From Candidatus Magasanikiibacteriota bacterium (lineage in GTDB: Bacteria > Patescibacteriota > Patescibacteriia > Magasanikbacterales > UBA922), in NCBI GenBank assembly GCA_041674805.1, contig JBAYVA010000004.1, positions 30,069 through 94,068 on the forward strand: DNA of 64,000 nt, written 5' to 3'. The position numbers and the translations under genes were made by a program. This document shows positions 1,546 to 13,205 of the stretch, piece by piece. Positions within the stretch are counted from its first letter, which is position 1. Each line of letters starts with the position of its first letter. Under the pieces are notes generated by a model that searched no databases, was not told the DNA's origin, and saw nothing but the letters and a program-made list of their open reading frames with translations.

Positions 1546-4500
1546 ATGAGTCGTTTTGTCTTAAATCAAGTTTTGAAAATAAAAAACTTGTTGTCAAAAA
1601 TATTACCAAAAAAATTATCCAAATATCATTATTTGGCATTTTTTGTTTCTTCAATTATTTTAGTTTTTATTTTTTCTAGTCATAGTGTAATTGCTGAAGG
1701 TAGTACAGATGTTTTCGGTGGTATCGGTAATTGGGTATCTGGTGCTTTGTTGACTTTTGCTAATTTAGCTATTTTGTTGAGTATTTTCTTTTTGAAATTT
1801 TTTATTCATTTAGCTAGTTACAACAATTATATTGATGTAAATGTCGTAAAAATTGGTTGGGTGATGGTACGTGATGTAGCTAATATGTTCTTTGTGGTTG
1901 CTTTGCTTATTATTGCTTTTGCTACTATTTTAGGTATTGAAAAGTATGAATGGAAAAAAGGCCTAGTCAAGTTGATTGCTATGGCTATTTTGATAAATTT
2001 TAGTAATTTGATAGCTCAAGTTATTATTGATGTAGCTCATGTTTTTACAATTACTTTTTTGAATGCTATTTCTGCTAGTGCTGGTGGTAATTTGATCAAC
2101 ATGTTTGATTTGGCTGAAATAAATACAATGGTTCATGGTAGAGAGCTTGGTTCTGATATGCAACAAGCCAATTATGCCATATTTGGTGCTGCTGTGTTGG
2201 CTCTTATTTTTTCGGTTATTACAGCGGTAACCTTGGGAGCTTATGCTATCGTGATGGCTGCTCGTGTGGTGGTATTGTGGGCTTTGATCATTTTGTCTCC
2301 ATTGGCTTATCTTTTGTCAGCTTTGCCTGATGGTGACAAATATGCTAGTAAATGGTGGTCAGAGTTCAACAGGCATGTGATAGTCGCTCCGGTAATGGTT
2401 TTTTTCTTATGGTTGGCTTTTGCTACTTTTGGTAGCGGCAATATTATGGCTGAAATAAGTAAAAGTGCGACCGTACCTTTGGATACTGGTAGTATTCCTA
2501 CTTCTATATCTTTGTTAGAAGTTTCTACTTGGGAAAATATGGCCAGTTTTATTTTGGGTATTATATTTTTGGTGATTGGTCTAAAAATGACACAGGAAAC
2601 AGGAGCAACTGCTTCTGGTATGGTAAGTGCTGCTGTAGATTGGGGTAAGAAAGTGGCTACTATTGCTAGTGGTTATGCTCTGGGTAGATGGATGGTGGGT
2701 AAGGGCAAGGATGCTGTTATAGAAAACACACCTATTGTTGGTATGCGATCTTTAAGACGTTACGGTAAACAAATAAAAGGTGTTACTACTTATCCATTCA
2801 AAAGATTTGCTATTGCACGTGATGGGCAAGTTCAAAATTTAGAAAAAAAACGAGAGGATGCAAAAAAAGAAGGTAAAACTTTTAAAAGTTTTGCTTTGGG
2901 TGCTGCTGTACTTGGAGCTACAGCTCTTTGGAGTTCTTCAAAAAGAAAAGACACTCTGGCCGATAATTGGGAGGATATTGCTGAACATATGGATAGAGAG
3001 CATGAAGCAAAAATATCTACAAGTAGAACTCCAAGTGGTGATTTAAAACAAACTGCTCGTGTGAGAGCTGATTTTGCTGTGGAAGCTAAAGATACAAAAG
3101 GTCCTCAAAAAGGTGCTGAACGTGCTTTAAAACTTATAAAAGAAAATGATAAATCAGTAGTAGATTCTTTGAAGGCTATGTCTTCATCAAAATCAAAAGG
3201 TGAGGTTGTAACTGGTTTAGTTGATGAAGTTAAACGTGAAAAATATTTGAAAGAAAGAGATAAAGATCAAATTTTAGACAAAAAAACAGATGATGATACT
3301 TATATGAAAATTTTGGCACGAAAGAAAGTTTTTAATGAAAAATTTCAAGAAACTGTTGATACTGATAGGGATTTAATGCAAGAAGATACTAGATTACATT
3401 TACATGATACAGATGATAATTATAAAAATTTAGATAATAGATCTACAGAAGCTGGAGAAAGATTGACTCAAGCAAAAAATTTATATGCTAAACGTATGGA
3501 TGAAGGCTCTGCTGTTGAAAAAGCTAAACTTATGGAAGATGATAAATTCAAGAAGAGAGAGCAGGAGTTTGGAACTCTTGAAGCTAGAACAAAAGCTATA
3601 ACAGAAGATGTTAATTCTCAAAAAGAATTATATTTATTGAAAGCTATTAAAGAGATTTTAGGAGAAATAACATTAGATACAAAAGGTAATATGACTGGTC
3701 CAGAAGATAATGTTTATAGAAGATCTTTTGTTTCTAAAGCGGCTGTAGAGAGATTGAAAGATGGTGTGGAAAGAACACAAATTTCTTCGTTGGCTTCAGC
3801 TAGAGCAGAAGGATATGAAAAAGAATCTGATGATTTACGTGCTAATTCTGTAAGAAAAAATGCTGCAGCTGAAATACAAAAAAGAGATACTGAAATGTTT
3901 GCTAATTTGAGTTATCAAGATAGACGTTTATTAGAGCAGACATTGATTGTCAAAATTCAAGAAGCTGAGGATAAAGGAGATACAGATCTTTTGAAAAAAC
4001 TTAGAATGCAAAAAAATTCTTTGACTACTTTGAATATGTTAGATGACGCTGAAACTTCTCGTGATACTCGTATTGATGCTTTAGATAAATTGGGTATTAA
4101 CGAATTAGGAGATAAAAATCGTTTAAAAGCAGAATTGCAAAGACGTCTTGGTGTTCATACAACAAAACTTGAAGCAGTTTCTATGGATGAGGGCGAACAA
4201 ATAGCATATCTTCAAAAACTTTTTGATGATTTATATGAAGGTCAAGAAGTTCAAAAACAGATTGTTTTGGAACAAATAGAAAAAGCTATGAAATCTGTTG
4301 CTATGAAAGGTGATGAATATGGTCTTGGTCTTATCAATTCAACACCAAGTAGTGATGATATAGCTTCTGGTACAATAACAAGATCTTGGAAAAGTAAAGC
4401 CGATAATGACGAGACAGATTATTTTGCTACAAGAGCTAGAGGAGTTGATAGTATTGAAGGTTATGCTAAATTAAAGAAAATTGGTGATAAATATAAAATA

Positions 4501-4800
4501 AATGGTTTTTCTAAAAGAGGGGTAAACTCAGTTTCATTTTTTTTCAAAGGTGTTGATTCTCGTTCTATGGCAGCAGAGAGTATGAAATCTGTAAGTAGTT
4601 CTGTTAATGAAGCTTCTGTTGATTCATCAAATGTAGATGAATATTTGGATTTTTTAGAGAAAACAAAAAGTTTAATGCAAAGTAGTGGTTATGAAACAGC
4701 AAAAAAACAGTGGGAACCTTTTATTGAAAAATTGGAAGCTGAGGCAGATTTTAAACAAAAGGAAAGATTAAAAGAAATTTTAAAAAAAAAGGAAGATTAA
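1546..4800 (+). CDS. VirB6/TrbL-like polytopic membrane protein with long charged coiled-coil C-terminal extension
   Basis: First roughly 420 aa hold 7-9 predicted TM helices in a TrbL/VirB6-like arrangement. The remaining roughly 650 aa are K/E/D-rich and heptad-like. It heads an operon with PrgI-like and VirB4 genes. Confidence 0.45.
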   Translation: MSRFVLNQVLKIKNLLSKILPKKLSKYHYLAFFVSSIILVFIFSSHSVIAEGSTDVFGGIGNWVSGALLTFANLAILLSIFFLKFFIHLASYNNYIDVNVVKIGWVMVRDVANMFFVVALLIIAFATILGIEKYEWKKGLVKLIAMAILINFSNLIAQVIIDVAHVFTITFLNAISASAGGNLINMFDLAEINTMVHGRELGSDMQQANYAIFGAAVLALIFSVITAVTLGAYAIVMAARVVVLWALIILSPLAYLLSALPDGDKYASKWWSEFNRHVIVAPVMVFFLWLAFATFGSGNIMAEISKSATVPLDTGSIPTSISLLEVSTWENMASFILGIIFLVIGLKMTQETGATASGMVSAAVDWGKKVATIASGYALGRWMVGKGKDAVIENTPIVGMRSLRRYGKQIKGVTTYPFKRFAIARDGQVQNLEKKREDAKKEGKTFKSFALGAAVLGATALWSSSKRKDTLADNWEDIAEHMDREHEAKISTSRTPSGDLKQTARVRADFAVEAKDTKGPQKGAERALKLIKENDKSVVDSLKAMSSSKSKGEVVTGLVDEVKREKYLKERDKDQILDKKTDDDTYMKILARKKVFNEKFQETVDTDRDLMQEDTRLHLHDTDDNYKNLDNRSTEAGERLTQAKNLYAKRMDEGSAVEKAKLMEDDKFKKREQEFGTLEARTKAITEDVNSQKELYLLKAIKEILGEITLDTKGNMTGPEDNVYRRSFVSKAAVERLKDGVERTQISSLASARAEGYEKESDDLRANSVRKNAAAEIQKRDTEMFANLSYQDRRLLEQTLIVKIQEAEDKGDTDLLKKLRMQKNSLTTLNMLDDAETSRDTRIDALDKLGINELGDKNRLKAELQRRLGVHTTKLEAVSMDEGEQIAYLQKLFDDLYEGQEVQKQIVLEQIEKAMKSVAMKGDEYGLGLINSTPSSDDIASGTITRSWKSKADNDETDYFATRARGVDSIEGYAKLKKIGDKYKINGFSKRGVNSVSFFFKGVDSRSMAAESMKSVSSSVNEASVDSSNVDEYLDFLEKTKSLMQSSGYETAKKQWEPFIEKLEAEADFKQKERLKEILKKKED

Positions 4801-4869
4801 AAGAATAAAATAGTATAATTAATTTTCATATCATATTTCCGATATCATCGGGATTGTGGAATAGTTGAT

Positions 4870-5889
4870 TTGTTTTTTATGAATAATGATTTACAAATAA
4901 AAAAAATTATTCAAAATAATAATTTTTCTGAGGTTGAAATTAAACTTAGAAAAATTATTATTGATCCTGTTGCTAAGGATGTCTTTTGGGGTATATTGGA
5001 TGAGGATTATTCTTTTGCGGATAATAAAAAAATACAAAATGATTGGTGGAAATTATATAGAATGTATGTAGAAATTTGTTGGAAAAAAATGCCAATGTTG
5101 CATATTGAATTTGTAAATAATCATTTATTTGCAAAACAATTAGTAATTGCTAGTGTACTTAAATTTGAACCTATTGAAACTTTATTAAACTATTTGGGTT
5201 CTAGATTTCTTTTGGAAGAAGAACAAATGTCTGAATATAAAAAAATAAAAGAAAGTATTTTCAATTCTAATATTGTTTTAGGTACATATAAAGGAAAAAA
5301 TGTTATTCAAAAAGAATTAATACAAGAAATTACAGAATTAAATAGTAAAAGTAACCCTACATTGGAGTTAGCTAATTTAAAAGCAAAATTAGAAGAAATA
5401 TTTTTTTCTAATTTTCCAAATGATTTGAATTTTGATAATTTTTTTGTAAATAAAAGAGAAGTTGTTGTAACATTTTTTTCTTTTGTACATTTTTTGATAG
5501 GTGTTCAACCAAAAAGTATTTCAAGATTTATTGATTTGTATTTTAATGGTAAAGAAATACTGAATAAATCAGAATTCTCTAATATCAATAATGCTTTGGA
5601 CGAAATAGTCAATTTAGATACTGACATTGTTGAAAATATAGAAAACAATGAAGATCTTTTATCTAATAGTACAAGCAATTTAGACAATAAATATTTGCAA
5701 ATCAAATCCCAACTAGAACAACAATTTTCTTATGATGAAAATGGAGAGTTGACTCCAATAGAAGAAGTTTTGAATATTTTGTCTCAAATGGCGGAAGAAC
5801 AAGGTGATGTAAATATTGAAGAGTTGTATATGTTTGATGAAAATGCTGGTAAGTTTGTCTGGAACGAAGAATTAACTAATGCTAAATAA
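4870..5889 (+). CDS. hypothetical protein (T4SS-cluster associated)
   Basis: Long ORF co-directional within the T4SS-like operon; no recognisable motifs. Confidence 0.5.
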   Translation: MFFMNNDLQIKKIIQNNNFSEVEIKLRKIIIDPVAKDVFWGILDEDYSFADNKKIQNDWWKLYRMYVEICWKKMPMLHIEFVNNHLFAKQLVIASVLKFEPIETLLNYLGSRFLLEEEQMSEYKKIKESIFNSNIVLGTYKGKNVIQKELIQEITELNSKSNPTLELANLKAKLEEIFFSNFPNDLNFDNFFVNKREVVVTFFSFVHFLIGVQPKSISRFIDLYFNGKEILNKSEFSNINNALDEIVNLDTDIVENIENNEDLLSNSTSNLDNKYLQIKSQLEQQFSYDENGELTPIEEVLNILSQMAEEQGDVNIEELYMFDENAGKFVWNEELTNAK

Positions 5890-5891
5890 GT

Positions 5892-7148
5892 ATGGCCGAT
5901 AATAAACAAGCCACAATTTTGGTAAAAAAAGCTGACGGTACAAAAGTACGCGTTACTCTTGAGGAATTCAAAAAAATGCGTGAAGGAGAAAAGGGGAATG
6001 GAGAAACATCCCAAACGTCTGGCAAGAGCGGAATGAGTGACAATGAACAGAATGTGATGAACAATGAGCTAATAACCCCGCTAGAAAATAATATTCAAGA
6101 AGAAAAAATGTTTGTCACTTCAGCTTCTGTACCTCTATCACCAGCTGTTACATTGTTAGAAAATGAACAAGTTTTAGCAAAAGAACAAAATGATGTACCT
6201 GTAGCAGAAGAAAATGAATTGGCAACAACTACACCAGTGACAGATATTTTTGTCAATGAAGCTGCTGCAAATTTTGAATGGGGTCAAAAAGACAATGAAT
6301 CACTTTTAGAAGAAGACAACAAAGAAGTAGTGGCTTTGCAAAACAAAGGTAAAGTGCATGTGGCTATGCATGATTTGAATGAACATATCAAAATGCCTAG
6401 TATGGGAATAGATGATGATATGAAAAATCGTGCTAAATCTTTGCTTATTTCTTGGCAAAAAGGTATTAGAAATGATTATCAGATTTTGGATTATGCTAAA
6501 CGAGATATCAATCACGGTGGTCTTGGTTTGGATGATGATCAAGCCAATAGATTTTTGAATCAAATAAAAAATTACAAAAATAATTTAGACAATTTGTTTG
6601 AAATAGTTTTTGAAAAAAAGAAACAACAAGTTATCTTGAATACTAATACAAAAAATGTTGTTGATGCTACATCAAAAAATGAAGTCCTAAACATAAATCC
6701 AGAAAATTTTAGAAAAGAAATTGCCAAAAATACTATTACAGATGATAATTTTTTTAGTGCTCCTTTTTCTCATACGCCACCAAAATCTGTTGTTTATGAT
6801 GTGGCTTCACCACAATCATTGAAACAAAAAACAACTGGACCAAAACAAGAAATATCCGAATTTTCATTAGTAGAATTTCGTCGTTTTGCCAAAGATCCTT
6901 ACAAATGTGCGGATATGTTATTTTCAAAATTTCAATCTTGGAAACAAGAATCTTATTTGTTGTTTTTAGATACTATGGAAGGTTGGCACTTGAGTCCTTT
7001 GTACAATATGTATGTCAGAGCAACCTTGGAAGCTTTCAACAAACATATTACTTTACAACAATTTTTTCAGACAAAAAATCCTAATGATTTTATTACTTTT
7101 GAAGAATACAAAAGTTTGATAGAGTTAAACGACAAGTTAAGTAAGTAG
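5892..7148 (+). CDS. hypothetical acidic protein (T4SS-cluster associated)
   Basis: Start sits 3 nt after the upstream stop; D/E-rich; no recognised domain. Confidence 0.5.
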   Translation: MADNKQATILVKKADGTKVRVTLEEFKKMREGEKGNGETSQTSGKSGMSDNEQNVMNNELITPLENNIQEEKMFVTSASVPLSPAVTLLENEQVLAKEQNDVPVAEENELATTTPVTDIFVNEAAANFEWGQKDNESLLEEDNKEVVALQNKGKVHVAMHDLNEHIKMPSMGIDDDMKNRAKSLLISWQKGIRNDYQILDYAKRDINHGGLGLDDDQANRFLNQIKNYKNNLDNLFEIVFEKKKQQVILNTNTKNVVDATSKNEVLNINPENFRKEIAKNTITDDNFFSAPFSHTPPKSVVYDVASPQSLKQKTTGPKQEISEFSLVEFRRFAKDPYKCADMLFSKFQSWKQESYLLFLDTMEGWHLSPLYNMYVRATLEAFNKHITLQQFFQTKNPNDFITFEEYKSLIELNDKLSK

Positions 7149-7153
7149 TTTTT

Positions 7154-7591
7154 ATGCAACAGTTTGTAGTACCACAATTTATTGAAGTAGAAGACAAAAT
7201 TTTTGGTCCAATTACAGTGAGACAGTTTCTTATATTATTAGTCACTGGTACTATTATCTTTTTTTCTTTTCGTTATGGAGATTTTTATTTGTTTCTTTTG
7301 TGCTTAGTTTTTTTTGGAGGTTTGGGTCTTATTTTCTCTTTTGTAAAAATAAATGGACAAAATTTTCATTATTTCATATTGAATGTTATACAAAGTTTAA
7401 AAAAACCAGATTTGCGTGTTTGGCACAAACATTATGACAAAGTTGAATTAAATTATTTACGTAAACGTGTTTTTGTTGTAGAGAGTGTTGACAAAAAACA
7501 AAAAAAAGTTCAAAAAAAACATATTAGAGATTTGGCTTTACTGGTGAATACTGGAGGATTTTATAAACCAGATGATGATTTTTCTTTTTAG
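7154..7591 (+). CDS. PrgI/VirB3-like small membrane protein
   Basis: N-terminus VPQFIEVEDKIFGPITVRQFLILL matches the PrgI-family pattern (P..L..V.TK..F.LT.RQ) followed by two TM helices; lies immediately upstream of VirB4. Confidence 0.5.
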   Translation: MQQFVVPQFIEVEDKIFGPITVRQFLILLVTGTIIFFSFRYGDFYLFLLCLVFFGGLGLIFSFVKINGQNFHYFILNVIQSLKKPDLRVWHKHYDKVELNYLRKRVFVVESVDKKQKKVQKKHIRDLALLVNTGGFYKPDDDFSF

Positions 7592-7652
7592 TTTATTCTT
7601 TATCAAAAAGTAATTTGATTAGAAGTAGTAGATTTGTTAAATTTTTTATATT

Positions 7653-8339
7653 ATGCAAAATAAAAAAGCTTTAAAAAAAATAAACAAAAAACCAAATACG
7701 CAGACATATTTGCCTATTGCTGAAATTAGAGATGATGTTGTGGTTTTGAAAGATGGCACTTTGCGAGCAGTACTTATTACTTCTAGTATCAATTTTTCTT
7801 TGAAATCAGAAGACGAACAAAATGCTACAATTTCTTCTTATGTAGGATTTTTGAATTCTTTGGATTTTCCTATTCAAATTAGTGTGCAATCTAGACGTTT
7901 GCAAGTCAAACCTTACTTAGAGAAATTGATGGACCAAGAAAAAAAACAAACAAACGAATTATTGCGCATCCAAACAGCTGATTATCGTTCTTTTATTGAA
8001 GAGTTAGTAGATATTGGCAAAATAATGACCAAAAAATATTATGTGATAGTTCCTTATGATCCTTTGTCTAATAATAAAAAAAGTTTTTGGTCAAGGTTCA
8101 AGGAAGTTGTCAAACCAGCAATTTCTTTACGTCTAAAAGACGAAAGATTCAAACAAAGAAAAGATGGTTTGGAAATGCGTGTTAGACAAGTATCTAGTGG
8201 TTTGGAAAATATGGGTTTATCTGTAGCGCAGTTAGATACACAATCATTGATAGAATTATATTATAATACTTACAATCCAGATATTGCTTTTGCAGAACAA
8301 TTGGGTGATATCGAAAAACAGCAAATAGAGGAGTTGTAA
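7653..8339 (+). CDS. VirB4/TrbE-like ATPase, N-terminal domain fragment (split gene)
   Basis: YLPIAEIRDDVVVLKDGTLRAVLITSSINFSLKSEDEQ...FPIQISVQSRRL resembles the VirB4 N-terminal (CagE/TrbE/VirB) domain. It stops 38 nt before the ATPase ORF. Confidence 0.5.
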   Translation: MQNKKALKKINKKPNTQTYLPIAEIRDDVVVLKDGTLRAVLITSSINFSLKSEDEQNATISSYVGFLNSLDFPIQISVQSRRLQVKPYLEKLMDQEKKQTNELLRIQTADYRSFIEELVDIGKIMTKKYYVIVPYDPLSNNKKSFWSRFKEVVKPAISLRLKDERFKQRKDGLEMRVRQVSSGLENMGLSVAQLDTQSLIELYYNTYNPDIAFAEQLGDIEKQQIEEL

Positions 8340-8377
8340 GTGTTTAGTTATTAAAAAAATAGTATATAATCATAAAT

Positions 8378-10255
8378 ATGCCTTTTAGACCTATTTCAAG
8401 CAGTAATATAAAAAACTTCAAAGATTACGAGCTTGAAGATAAAGAAAAAATAAAAATTAAAGAAGATTTAATATCTCTTGAAGAAGAGCGTGTTTATCGT
8501 GAAGGTACGGTGGCAATACGTGATCTTATTGCGCCCTCAGCTTTCAAAGTAGAACCAAATTTTTTACAATTGGGTGATACTTTTTTGCGTACTATTTTTG
8601 TAACTAGTTATCCTCGTTATATTGGAGTTGGTTGGAATGCTTCTATCCTCAATTTGAATTTGAGTATGGATGTTAGTATGTTTTTTTATCCTGTTAACTC
8701 TGCGGTAATTTTGAAACAATTAAAAAATAAAGTAGGTGCTTTGCAAGCACAATTGTCTTCAGACGCTGAAAAAGGCGCTGCCCGTGATCCTTTGAGAGAG
8801 ACAGCTTTACGTGATATAGAATCTTTGCGAGATGATTTGACTCAGGGTACTGAACATTTTTTTCAATTTGCTTTTTATATTACACTGTACTCAACAAGTA
8901 AAGAAGAATTGGACAAACAAACTGATGATTTGCACAATATTTTTGGTTCAAAATTGATTCATAGTAAACATGTTTTGTATCAATCTGAACAAGGCTTCAA
9001 TTCTACAATACCATTGGGAGTAGATGAATTAGTTATTTCTTTTAACATGAATTCATCTCCGATTGCAGCTTCATTTCCTTTTATATCCTCAGAGCTTACT
9101 AGTGATGATGGTATTTTGTATGGTATCAACAGACATAATAATAGTTTGATTTTGTTTGATAGATTTTCTTTGCAAAATGCCAATATGGTAGTATTTGCTA
9201 CTTCTGGTGCTGGTAAATCTTATGCTGTAAAATTGGAAATTTTGCGTAGTTTGATGATGGGTATTGATGTAATTGTAATTGATCCTGAAATGGAGTATGT
9301 TCATTTGTCTGAAGCTGTAAATGGTACTTATGTAAATATTTCTTTGGCTTCTGATAGTAAAGTAAATCCTTTTGATTTGCCAAGACCTGTTGGTCAACAA
9401 GTTTCAACTGAAGATGTGATTAGAAGTGCTGTCATTACTTTGAAAGGTTTGTTGCGTATTATGTTAGGTACTATAAATTCTACAGAAGATTCTATTTTGG
9501 ATAGAGCTTTGCTTGAGACTTATGCCAAAAAAGATATTACTATAAATAGTGATTTGTCTACTGTTGAAGCGCCTGTGATGCAAGATTTGCTGGATGTTTT
9601 GTCTGGTATGGATGGAGCTGAAAATTTAGTAATTAGATTAAAAAAATATACAGATGGTACTTTTGCTGGCTTATTCAATTCTCCAACCAATGTAAATACA
9701 AGTAATCAACTTGTGATATTTAGTGTGCGTGATTTGGAAGATGAATTGCGTCCAATGGCTATTTATACTTTGGTCAATTATATTTGGAATATTGTGCGTT
9801 CTGAAAAAAAGAAAAGATTACTTATGATAGATGAAGCTTGGTGGCTTATGATGCACGAAGATAGTGCCAAATTTATGTATGCTTTGGTCAAGCGTTGTCG
9901 TAAATATTTCTTGGGAGTAACAACTATCACTCAAGACGTCAATGATTTTTTGCGTTCTCCTTATGGACAAGCTATTGTGAACAACTCATCTATGCAATTG
10001 CTTTTAAAACAATCTCCTTCAGCAATTGATACTATTCAAAAGACTTTTATGTTGACAGAAGGTGAAAAATATTTGCTTTTGGATAGTCCGGTAGGACAAG
10101 GTATTTTCTTTGCTGGCAACAAACATGTGGCTATTCAAGTAGTTGCTTCTTATACTGAAGATCAATTGGTCACTACCAATCCTCAACAGCTTTTGGAAAT
10201 AGAAAGAGCCAAAAAAGATTTTCAAGATAAAATGAATAATGAGTATTTATCATAA
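8378..10255 (+). CDS. VirB4/TrbE-like conjugal-transfer ATPase, ATPase domain
   Basis: Walker A VVFATSGAGKSYAV, Walker B/DEAW motif LLMIDEAWWLM, and ITQ motif in GVTTITQD, all typical of VirB4/TraC. Confidence 0.65.
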   Translation: MPFRPISSSNIKNFKDYELEDKEKIKIKEDLISLEEERVYREGTVAIRDLIAPSAFKVEPNFLQLGDTFLRTIFVTSYPRYIGVGWNASILNLNLSMDVSMFFYPVNSAVILKQLKNKVGALQAQLSSDAEKGAARDPLRETALRDIESLRDDLTQGTEHFFQFAFYITLYSTSKEELDKQTDDLHNIFGSKLIHSKHVLYQSEQGFNSTIPLGVDELVISFNMNSSPIAASFPFISSELTSDDGILYGINRHNNSLILFDRFSLQNANMVVFATSGAGKSYAVKLEILRSLMMGIDVIVIDPEMEYVHLSEAVNGTYVNISLASDSKVNPFDLPRPVGQQVSTEDVIRSAVITLKGLLRIMLGTINSTEDSILDRALLETYAKKDITINSDLSTVEAPVMQDLLDVLSGMDGAENLVIRLKKYTDGTFAGLFNSPTNVNTSNQLVIFSVRDLEDELRPMAIYTLVNYIWNIVRSEKKKRLLMIDEAWWLMMHEDSAKFMYALVKRCRKYFLGVTTITQDVNDFLRSPYGQAIVNNSSMQLLLKQSPSAIDTIQKTFMLTEGEKYLLLDSPVGQGIFFAGNKHVAIQVVASYTEDQLVTTNPQQLLEIERAKKDFQDKMNNEYLS

Positions 10256-12549: not shown

Positions 12550-12620
12550 GTCATTTGATTATAATTTATATTTGGTTATTATATCAATAATCTTTTGTTG
12601 TAGTCAAATTATAACAAAAA

Positions 12621-12650
12621 ACAAACTTTAAAATAAAGTTTGTTTTTTTA
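12621..12650. terminator. bidirectional terminator hairpin downstream of tRNA array
   Basis: Perfect 9-bp stem acaaacttt/aaagtttgt with a T-run on both strands. Confidence 0.5.
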
Positions 12651-12651
12651 G

Positions 12652-12738
12652 CGGAGAGATAGGGATTCGAACCCTAGGAAGGTTTGACCCTTCAACGGTT
12701 TTCAAGACCGCCGCCATAGACCGCTCAGCCATCTCTCC
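12652..12738 (-). tRNA. tRNA-Ser (anticodon UGA)
   Basis: Acceptor GGAGAGA/TCTCTCC, G73, long variable arm, anticodon loop CUUGAAA, T-loop GTTCGAATC; no encoded CCA. Confidence 0.85.
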
Positions 12739-12740
12739 AG

Positions 12741-12774
12741 TTTAACTTTTGACAGTTAACATTTGACAATTAAC
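12741..12774. repeat. direct repeats TTGACA(G/A)TTAAC between tRNA genes
   Basis: tttgacagttaacatttgacaattaac; related copies at 12944-12978 and 12988-13023. Confidence 0.5.
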
Positions 12775-12852
12775 TTATTAAAATAAGGTTAATTTTTAAT
12801 AGTCAAATGTAAATTGTCAAGATTGGTGTATTGTTACTATGATGATCAAAAG

Positions 12853-12941
12853 CGGAGAAGGCGGGATTCGAACCCGCGGTCCGGTTTTACCCAGACAACA
12901 CATTAGCAGTGTGCCCCTTTCGGCCTCTCAGGCACCTCTCC
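12853..12941 (-). tRNA. tRNA-Ser (anticodon GCU)
   Basis: Acceptor GGAGAGG, long variable arm, anticodon loop CUGCUAA, GTTCGAATC T-loop; no encoded CCA. Confidence 0.85.
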
Positions 12942-13026
12942 TATGACAACTTTTAACAGTTGGCAATTGACTATTAACTTTTTTTAAGATGTCAACTGTC
13001 ATTTGTTAAGTGTCAAAAGTTGGTCC

Positions 13027-13116
13027 TGGCGGAGAGACAGGGATTCGAACCCTGGGTCCCCTTGCGGAGACTGCAGTTTAGTAAACTGCTGCTATCGGCC
13101 ACTCAGCCATCTCTCC
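13027..13116 (-). tRNA. Ser-type (class II) tRNA with atypical anticodon loop UUACUAA (anticodon ACU), CCA encoded
   Basis: Acceptor and D arm are identical to tRNA-Ser(UGA). Anticodon stem GCAGU/ACUGC with loop TTACTAA, long variable arm, G73 and a genomically encoded CCA. Confidence 0.6.
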
Positions 13117-13205
13117 TTTTTTAACATCTAATTCTTGTATATTCTATATCAAACAAATAATATTGTCAACTTCTAAACCTGTGGTTATTTTTGTTTTTTT
13201 GGGTG

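Follow-up and report, generated by a model that had tools for sequence, protein, structure and literature searches.

The scarcity of adenosine at the wobble position of tRNA anticodons (A34) is a puzzle that dates to the 1966 wobble paper of Crick, in a passage quoted by a 2026 preprint. In the Ser-Arg split box, A34 has been reported to be "universally missing" (2021 review, PMC8007984). The 2026 preprint surveyed 4,047 cultured bacterial genomes in GtRNAdb and makes no mention of Patescibacteria. It reports that split-box A34 tRNAs are only sporadic and are always accompanied by a G34 partner, and it treats persistent A34 tRNAs as a phenomenon of four-codon boxes. For Patescibacteria, the supplement of a paper on tRNA introns gives per-amino-acid counts only, with no anticodons. 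Literature matches for ACU tRNAs consist only of engineered tRNAs, a human tRNA-Ser-ACT locus known from work on tRNA fragments, and one haptophyte mitochondrial trnS-ACU, and the 'Ser-ACT' of E. coli is an empty table slot. The ACU anticodon has been termed 'non-native' (PMC6158751). The full-text literature yielded no account of a Ser(ACU) family occurring naturally in bacteria or phages; the bracketed form 'Ser(ACU)' cannot be matched there, so that a report could be missed.

In this work, we have analysed a stretch of 64,000 nt (the window) from Candidatus Magasanikiibacteriota (assembly GCA_041674805.1, contig JBAYVA010000004.1, positions 30,069 to 94,068) that carries a serine tRNA gene with an ACU anticodon. 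The initial annotation of this gene had pointed out that A34 is rare in bacteria outside tRNA-Arg(ACG), which agrees with the literature. The Ser(ACU) sequences described here were already public, and the pattern appears to have gone unrecognised.

The tRNA-Ser(ACU) gene and its cluster

ARAGORN identified four tRNAs in the window. Three of them are tandem serine tRNAs on the minus strand, including a standard Ser(UGA) and a standard Ser(GCU), as had been read in the initial annotation. The features of the cluster are as follows.

13027..13116, minus strand: tRNA-Ser(ACU) gene (ARAGORN; Rfam RF00005, 56.2 bits; cloverleaf z = -3.8; family alignment with 17 compensated pairs)
13116..13030, minus strand: mature positions 1-73 of Ser(ACU), followed by the encoded CCA at 13029..13027
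13080..13082, minus strand: anticodon, with A34 at 13082, C35 at 13081 and U36 at 13080, in the loop U32-U33-A-C-U-A37-A38 (direct reading; ARAGORN position 35 of the gene)
12852..12941, minus strand: tRNA-Ser(GCU), the standard decoder of AGC and AGU (ARAGORN; Rfam 52.9 bits)
12651..12738, minus strand: tRNA-Ser(UGA), which shares the anticodon-stem pairs G30-C40 and U31-A39 with Ser(ACU) (ARAGORN; Rfam 53.2 bits)
13141..13169, minus strand: predicted sigma-70-type promoter (TTGACA-17 nt-TAGAAT; consensus scan 11/12), some 25 nt upstream from where Ser(ACU) has its 5' end
12942..13026, minus strand: spacer between Ser(ACU) and Ser(GCU), one long imperfect hairpin (inverted repeat I1; -23.1 kcal/mol, z = -4.1)
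12739..12851, minus strand: spacer separating Ser(GCU) from Ser(UGA), in which 12749-12820 forms a hairpin (88% complementary inverted repeat I3; z = -3.3)
12616..12648, minus strand: intrinsic-terminator-like hairpin that closes the cluster, with a perfect 15-bp stem ahead of a U run (inverted repeat I4; z = -5.1)

The sequence of Ser(ACU) is GGAGAGA-UG-GCUGAGUGGCCGAUAGC-A-GCAGU-UUACUAA-ACUGC-[18-nt variable arm]-CAGGG-UUCGAAU-CCCUG-UCUCUCC-G-CCA. It has a 7-bp acceptor stem (GGAGAGA/UCUCUCC), a standard T arm, an acceptor/T-stem geometry of 7/5, and an 18-nt variable arm with its own 6-bp stem. The anticodon arm (GCAGU-UUACUAA-ACUGC), the ACU at positions 34-36 and the discriminator G73 are exactly as they had been read before. 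ARAGORN calls tRNA-Ser(ACT). The Rfam score (E = 1.9e-9; gathering threshold 29) is the highest among the three serine tRNAs and is not at pseudogene level, and the gene folds as a cloverleaf without mismatches, well below shuffled sequences (z = -3.8). The window gene is a genuine serine tRNA gene with a wobble A in a split box.

The identity elements recognised by E. coli seryl-tRNA synthetase (SerRS) are G73, G1-C72, G2-C71, A3-U70 and C11-G24, and all of them are present in the Ser(ACU) of the window. The acceptor stems of Ser(ACU) and Ser(UGA) are identical and their D arms are similar, a resemblance that was noticed at the outset and that holds across the family. From the identical acceptor stem, we infer that SerRS would charge Ser(ACU) with serine. 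SerRS does not read the anticodon, so the ACU tRNA should receive serine.

Ser(ACU) is the first gene of the cluster, Ser(GCU) follows 85 nt downstream, and Ser(UGA) is the last. With a near-consensus promoter, hairpins in both spacers and a terminal hairpin, the three serine tRNA genes look like one operon in which internal promoters are possible. The promoter at 13169..13141 probably drives the cluster. The hairpin in the spacer between Ser(ACU) and Ser(GCU), as folded, is probably a processing element of the shared precursor transcript.

Distribution of Ser(ACU) among bacteria and viruses

Homologues were sought with the pattern GGNNNNNTGNCNGAGNGGNNNANNGNNNNNNNNTACTAA, which fixes generic serine-tRNA positions of the 5' half (acceptor and D-arm region) together with U33-ACU-A37-A38. 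The pattern has 18 specified bases, and by our own calculation about 17 chance matches are expected in the genome collection. Species-representative genomes and IMG/VR viral contigs were scanned, and at least 120 loci matched in each collection. ARAGORN confirmed tRNA-Ser(act) in 115 of the 120 listed genome loci (at least 104 distinct sequences) and in 117 of the 120 listed IMG/VR loci (at least 102 distinct sequences).

Going by their titles, about 60 of the listed genome loci are from Patescibacteria (Magasanik-, Nomura-, Zambryski-, Taylor-, Yanofsky-, Kaiser- and Levybacteria, and Paceibacteria), about 16 are from Planctomycetota, and a few are from Verrucomicrobiota and others. Another 16 or so bear the label 'uncultured Gammaproteobacteria'. 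As several of them keep the gene order of the window, these labels are probably wrong. Ser(GCU) lies within 8 kb of Ser(ACU) in 59 of the listed family loci and in all close relatives. In high-GC Planctomycetota (58-69% GC), Ser(ACU) is chromosomal and solitary within the 8-kb locus. In one planctomycetotal locus (L108), it adjoins the genes moaE-moaD-moeA-moaC-moaB. The copies in Polynucleobacter look like hybrid genes.

Most of the listed IMG/VR genes are located within phage tRNA arrays that serve A/U-ending codons, on contigs whose viral status is given by the IMG/VR classification and the tRNA-array architecture. Near-complete phage arrays among the listed matches often have Ser(UGA) and Ser(ACU) without Ser(GCU). 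A PHROGs search of one viral Ser(ACU) locus gave weak matches only, of unknown function. The tRNA of the window and two ACU tRNAs from viral contigs were compared with GenBank sequences of cultured phages by BLAST, which cannot select by anticodon. This returned low-identity serine tRNAs only, and the six matches that were inspected are Ser(UGA), Ser(GCU) or Ser(CGA). Taken together, the matches identify Ser(ACU) as a large family in Patescibacteria, some other bacteria and, going by the contig classification, many environmental phages.

The viral matches bring in the reading that Ser(ACU) is mainly a mobile or phage-derived accessory tRNA (a cargo leftover, an integration target, or an escape from anticodon nucleases aimed at Ser(GCU)) that is marginal in host translation. 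Its abundance in IMG/VR arrays is consistent with this reading, as are several non-Patescibacteria genome matches that look like phage arrays (L047, L054, L115 and L118) and the hybrid appearance of the Polynucleobacter genes. The neighbourhood in the window argues against it. The tRNA cluster has housekeeping neighbours: it is flanked on one side by ComF-like, DsbB and thioredoxin genes and on the other by Hsp20, VanW-like, HAD, ClpP and DHH-family genes, and no phage or integrase genes were seen near it in the window. The region is collinear with, and about 70-90% identical in DNA to, loci of Magasanikbacteria and Patescibacteria MAGs (L061, L089, L079, L033 and others), and the serine trio stays collinear with its flanks across Magasanikbacteria that have diverged to about 70%. 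Orthologues, whose presence in relatives had been put forward as a check, occur in Magasanikbacteria MAGs with up to 98.6% identity to the window gene. The similarity declines gradually with distance, and the best listed viral match is only 90% identical. Collinear flanks and graded similarity indicate that Ser(ACU) has been vertically inherited with its gene neighbourhood in related Magasanikbacteria. The window gene also has its own strong predicted promoter. We consider a mainly mobile tRNA very unlikely.

Conservation of the cloverleaf

The acceptor, D, anticodon and T stems are paired in more than 96% of cells in both listed sets, and the positions each show several types of pair, such as AU, GC or UA at pair 7-66 of the acceptor stem and GC, AU, UA or CG at pair 29-41 of the anticodon stem. 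RNAalifold recovered the cloverleaf from 52 diverse members, with compensatory double changes in 17 of the 28 pairs, including the variable-arm stem. Among the 104 listed bacterial sequences, G73 is found in 95%, G1-C72 in 98%, G2-C71 in 97%, A3-U70 in 94% and C11-G24 in 100%. The variable arm is 16-20 nt long in 102 of these 104 members. The positions G30-C40, U31-A39 and U32 were left free by the scan pattern and yet are almost invariant. These patterns mark Ser(ACU) as an apparently old family under structural constraint, whose distinct sequences in bacteria and phages number more than 200.

For such a family, it is scarcely credible that the gene is a pseudogene or a neutral duplicate, or that it encodes a tRNA-like regulatory RNA without a decoding role; the first and the last of these had been offered as readings in the initial annotation. 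Only prior expectation speaks for them, as split-box A34 tRNAs have been described as missing or sporadic and their calls have been suspected to be prediction errors. Against them stand the top tRNA score within the cluster, the cloverleaf without mismatches, compensatory changes in every stem among the distinct homologues, and an anticodon loop that does not vary even where the pattern left it free to do so.

Origin of the tRNA body and the encoded CCA

The anticodon stem of Ser(ACU) follows the pattern N-C-R-G-U / A-C-Y-G-N of Ser(UGA), in contrast to Ser(GCU), which has C30-G40. When the anticodon and the variable arms were left out of the comparison, the mean between-locus identity of Ser(ACU) is 0.77 to UGA tRNAs and 0.70 to GCU tRNAs. 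For 80 of the 115 genes, the closest tRNA with another anticodon is a UGA tRNA, and UGA tRNAs make up only 20 of the 87 alternatives. Ser(UGA) genes also come first when ACU tRNAs are compared with cultured phages by BLAST. The family has its own signatures, A26 and C44, against G26 and U44 in other serine tRNAs.

On this evidence, the Ser(ACU) family seems to be derived from a UCN-type serine tRNA by anticodon replacement, which is feasible on a serine tRNA because SerRS ignores the anticodon. The origin would be an ancient change of anticodon on a Ser(UGA)-type body and not a G34A point mutation of Ser(GCU), and vertical inheritance in Patescibacteria would have followed. The initial suggestion of a duplicated serine tRNA that is evolving a specificity for AGU is retained for the specificity; the idea of a recent or still evolving gene is not, given an old family of more than 200 sequences and an inherited neighbourhood.

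The 3' end of Ser(ACU) is encoded as G-CCA, that of Ser(GCU) as G-CUU and that of Ser(UGA) as G-CUA. The encoded CCA is unique within the cluster, as had been stated, but it is not distinctive, since roughly a third to a half of the Ser(ACU), Ser(GCU) and Ser(UGA) genes of relatives encode it. In the closest relatives, CCA is also encoded by the GCU gene (L061) or by the UGA gene (L089). The encoded CCA was considered as a sign of foreign origin and rejected because its occurrence in relatives is spread over every type of serine tRNA.

Codon usage and codon meaning

The window has about 30% GC and uses the standard bacterial genetic code. Its 51 ORFs are long and end in TAA (36), TGA (9) and TAG (6). 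Codes 25 and 4 were rejected given these long ORFs, nine of which end in TGA. The 51 ORFs comprise 19,442 codons, and the comparison of AGU with AGC that had been suggested earlier gave 439 AGT against 43 AGC; AGA occurs 322 times and AGG 38 times. AGU makes up about 2.3% of codons overall and 32% of those for Ser. It is ten times commoner than AGC, and AGA is the main Arg codon.

The meaning of the codons was checked at conserved positions against PDB homologues. AGA occupies conserved Arg positions of ribosomal protein L20 (R3, R6, R28, R50, R55 and R92), and AGT falls on Ser residues conserved in GDP-mannose 4,6-dehydratase, such as the one in PRSPY. The AGN box keeps its standard meaning, and the ACU anticodon fits a serine codon. 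A change of the genetic code in which AGA means Ser was rejected, as AGA aligns with conserved Arg.

Codon demand explains the case of the window well, and perhaps does not explain the whole family. In the high-GC Planctomycetota that carry the gene, AGU is rare, with AGT/(AGT+AGC) of 0.06-0.45. Across the listed carrier loci, the preference for AGU over AGC does not exceed the general U-over-C bias of the other two-codon boxes. A simple AT-bias explanation for the whole family was rejected because the gene is also found in high-GC Planctomycetota. Codon demand cannot be the sole reason for retention where a solitary Ser(ACU) is kept in AGU-poor genomes, and Ser(ACU) may read more than AGU in some settings.

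Proposed decoding of AGU by an unedited A34

Our preferred reading, with a probability of about 0.75, is that Ser(ACU) is a dedicated Watson-Crick decoder of AGU with an unedited A34 that works beside Ser(GCU). We infer from the features above that the gene is expressed, that A34 stays unmodified and that reading is selective for AGU. The tRNA would read AGU through a Watson-Crick pair between A34 and U3, with A34 most likely left unedited. The neighbouring Ser(GCU) would still be needed for AGC and would read AGU only via G:U wobble. AGU is a major codon in this 30%-GC genome, so a dedicated reader should aid decoding, making it faster and more secure.

Published experiments on engineered tRNAs are consistent with this reading. 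In E. coli, an engineered ACU tRNA escaped deamination and gave 9.4% at AGU and 0.36% at AGG, with AGC and AGA below detection (PMC11066159). In vitro, AGU was read better by the ACU anticodon than by GCU (PMC6158751). Speaking against it, overexpressed split-box A34 tRNAs were reported to be often neutral or harmful in a 2026 E. coli study.

The alternative is that TadA or a related enzyme converts A34 to inosine, so that Ser(ICU) reads AGU and AGC, and AGA weakly, in the manner of Arg(ICG). The initial annotation had likewise raised AGY reading after A-to-I editing. The anticodon loop does have U33-A34-C35 and A37-A38 in common with tRNA-Arg(ACG). Some bacterial A34 tRNAs other than Arg carry I34, as cited for Leu-AAG of Oenococcus and Streptococcus, and a Phe-AAA construct, the sole split-box A34 tRNA assayed in the 2026 E. 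coli study, appears to have been deaminated. Phage arrays without Ser(GCU) and the solitary planctomycetotal gene would also be easier to understand if AGC were covered as well. The sequence requirement of the enzyme points the other way: E. coli TadA edits UACG stem-loops (PMC13170351), and the loop of Ser(ACU) reads UACU, with U36 in place of the G that the motif needs. An ICU anticodon would insert Ser at AGA, the commonest Arg codon of the window, which encodes Arg at conserved sites. Ser(GCU) is kept alongside in the window genome and in its relatives, as expected if an unedited ACU cannot cover AGC. Near the Ser(ACU) of related Patescibacteria, the small sample of neighbouring tRNAs contains Arg(GCG) four times and Arg(ACG) never, which hints that these lineages may lack I34 altogether. 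The deaminase motif H(A/V)E...PCxxC is absent from all frames of the 64-kb window, which is a small part of the genome. We regard deamination to inosine as unlikely, and AGY reading by editing is disfavoured.

A wider form of the preferred reading, that of an unedited AGU decoder, is put forward tentatively, at somewhat less than even odds. Ser(ACU) would be an isoacceptor of ancient origin that has passed vertically through much of Patescibacteria, and it would be a staple of the tRNA arrays of environmental phages. Its unedited split-box A34 would be tolerated for two reasons: SerRS ignores the anticodon, and wobble A-to-I editing either has been lost in these lineages or is beyond their TadA on this tRNA, a condition at which the Arg(GCG) tRNAs of related loci hint.

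Discussion

The findings in this work add a large and structurally constrained natural family of split-box A34 tRNAs from uncultured Patescibacteria, Planctomycetota and phages. If an ancient unedited split-box isoacceptor is true, the rule that A34 is "universally missing" from this box would be overturned. That the synthetase of serine does not read the anticodon would explain why serine is the exception. The family provides a natural system for asking how an unedited A34 reads codons that lie beside Arg codons, how it is protected from TadA and why it is favoured. It would be surprising to specialists, and it makes the question of why A34 is absent testable. On the practical side, Ser(ACT) calls may be dropped or wrongly scored when genomes are annotated from their tRNAs, when codon adaptation is modelled and when phage hosts are predicted.

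The closest known system is the bacterial tRNA-Ser(GCU) of the E. coli serV type. Both tRNAs have the same serine identity, long variable arm and G73, serve the same two-codon Ser box and carry A37-A38 after U36. Ser(ACU) differs in having A34 and not G34, which would give it a Watson-Crick pair with AGU and probably leave AGC hardly read. It also differs in having G30-C40 and not C30-G40 in the anticodon stem, and its core is nearer to Ser(UGA). With tRNA-Ser(UGA) it shares the acceptor stem (in the window) and the anticodon-stem pattern, and this tRNA is the nearest body for most of the listed genes. All three anticodon bases differ between the two, Ser(ACU) has U32 in place of C32 and A/C in place of G/U at positions 26/44, and Ser(UGA) decodes UCN whereas Ser(ACU) would decode AGU.

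The tRNA-Thr(AGU) of Mycoplasma and the tRNA-Leu(AAG) of Lactobacillales, as summarised in the 2026 preprint, are similar to Ser(ACU) in that a genome-encoded A34 is kept across an AT-rich lineage. Both belong to four-codon boxes, in which loose reading by A34 or I34 cannot alter the amino acid, and their A34 tRNA replaces the G34 tRNA. The box of Ser(ACU), in contrast, is divided between Ser and Arg, and its G34 tRNA has been retained.

Like Ser(ACU), the tRNA-Arg(ACG) that is edited by TadA has a 5-bp anticodon stem and a 7-nt loop that contains U33-A34-C35 and A37-A38. Unlike tRNA-Arg(ACG), Ser(ACU) has U36 for G36 and U32 for C32, and its editing would cause Ser-for-Arg errors at AGA. TadA-edited I34 tRNAs replace the G34 isoacceptor, whereas Ser(ACU) has Ser(GCU) immediately downstream.

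Serine-type tRNAs that recode, such as allo-tRNAs, tRNA-Sec and suppressors, are marked by an 8/4 or 9/3 geometry or by an anticodon that reads a stop codon or a codon of another amino acid. Ser(ACU) differs from them in its 7/5 geometry and in an anticodon that pairs with AGU, which means Ser at conserved positions.

The phage auxiliary tRNA arrays carry the same anticodon loop, and the window copy differs from them in being chromosomal, in a conserved neighbourhood and beside its own Ser(GCU) and Ser(UGA). The engineered orthogonal ACU tRNAs have the same anticodon and were AGU-selective, unedited in E. coli and superior to GCU on AGU (PMC11066159; PMC6158751). Those tRNAs are synthetic archaeal Tyr or Pyl scaffolds placed in E. 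coli, whereas Ser(ACU) is a natural serine tRNA.

Serine tRNA cluster and the Ser(ACU) family

The Ser(ACU) gene of the window is the first gene of the cluster Ser(ACU)-Ser(GCU)-Ser(UGA). The spacers of this cluster fold into long imperfect hairpins and the cluster ends with a terminator:

12942-13026 (-), inter-tRNA spacer, long imperfect hairpin (fold z = -4.1)
12739-12851 (-), inter-tRNA spacer, long imperfect hairpin (fold z = -3.3)
12616-12648 (-), terminator, perfect hairpin of 15 bp, then a U run

The TTGACA-like 'promoter' hexamers within the spacers belong to the hairpin arms.

In the columns of the family alignment, Ser(ACU) genes have A26 in 108/115 and C44 in 91/115 among the matches listed. 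The remaining serine tRNAs of the genomes that carry Ser(ACU) are mostly G26 and U44. A26 and C44 may adjust the D-stem/anticodon-stem hinge to suit a weak A/U-rich anticodon.

Ser(ACU) in phage tRNA arrays

Ser(ACU) is present and Ser(GCU) is absent in near-complete phage arrays of 19-27 tRNAs each (IMG/VR loci L124, L156, L193, L205, and L224), which were drawn from a sample picked for ACU and thus give no frequency. Ser(ACU) is the sole AGC/AGU-box tRNA in these arrays, and Ser(UGA) accompanies it in some but not all of them. Several large IMG/VR contigs exhibit a recurring phage cassette, Thr(UGU)-Gln(UUG)-Asn(GUU)-Ser(ACU)-Ile(UAU)-Glu(UUC), with Lys(UUU) as an occasional extra member. 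The cassette was located at the following sites:

L126, 108-654
L143, 8738-10047
L129, 9912-10854
L047, 1887-2812

One of the carriers of the cassette is a MAG labelled Candidatus Planktophila, where the contig that bears it probably belongs to a phage and was binned together with the host genome.

Ser(ACU) in Planctomycetota and Polynucleobacter

High-GC (58-69%) Planctomycetota have a solitary chromosomal Ser(ACU) (L108, L003, L010, L036, L063, L075, L086, and L099), and AGU is rare in these carriers. Near-identical tRNA sequences were found again under different taxon labels. Ser(ACU)-like genes were also identified in two cultured Polynucleobacter isolates. The L108 gene and these two lie at:

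L108, 4139-4229, Ser(ACU), Planctomycetota
L014, 3195-3284, Ser(ACU)-like gene, Polynucleobacter
L016, 1494-1584, Ser(ACU)-like gene, Polynucleobacter

The L108 gene adjoins the molybdenum-cofactor genes moaE, moaD, moeA, moaC, and moaB, named from our reading of the ORF translations. Both Polynucleobacter genes exhibit a C32 loop (CUACUAA) and an arm of the Ser(UGA) type. The acceptor stem of the L014 gene has two mismatches and the pairing of the L016 gene is also imperfect. These two genes look like hybrid genes, perhaps sited at an island junction, and their ACU anticodon looks to be of independent origin.

Other loci in the window and related MAG contigs

Two plus-strand gene blocks were identified in the window:

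1546-10255 (+), gene run that includes a multi-pass membrane protein of 1084 aa
8378-10255 (+), TraG/VirB4-like P-loop ATPase within this run (Pfam PF19044)
27820-51140 (+), long same-strand block of ~23 kb that resembles a cell-surface polysaccharide locus

The first run resembles an apparatus for type IV secretion or DNA uptake, and its ATPase gene is kept in many related loci. In the second block, GDP-mannose dehydratase is backed by PDB matches. Its other translations were called by eye as GDP-fucose synthase-like, an ABC exporter, several glycosyltransferases and methyltransferases, an aminotransferase, UDP-glucose dehydrogenase, and an epimerase.

The ATPase gene is matched at 72-76% DNA identity by L026, L033, L068, and L090, which are third-party-assembled MAG contigs with record titles of 'uncultured Gammaproteobacteria'. 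L033 matches two further genes of the window, the VanW-like one and ClpP. All four contigs carry a tRNA of the Magasanikbacteria type, and the taxon names given to them are almost certainly incorrect.

Other wobble-position anticodons

The other anticodons starting with A in the viral loci (L121-L240) are Phe(AAA) (2), Leu(AAG) (4), and Arg(ACG) (4) among the matches listed. The tRNA-Phe(AAA) is a further split-box case of A34. Arg(GCG) was identified in MAG loci of Patescibacteria type:

L015, 282-355
L017, 542-614
L028, 5649-5721
L050, 3778-3854

The Arg(GCG) anticodon is reported to be missing from bacteria that rely on TadA and Arg(ACG). The presence of Arg(GCG), together with no Arg(ACG) seen across the 120 bacterial loci listed, hints that the lineages of Patescibacteria type carrying Arg(GCG) decode CGN without inosine.
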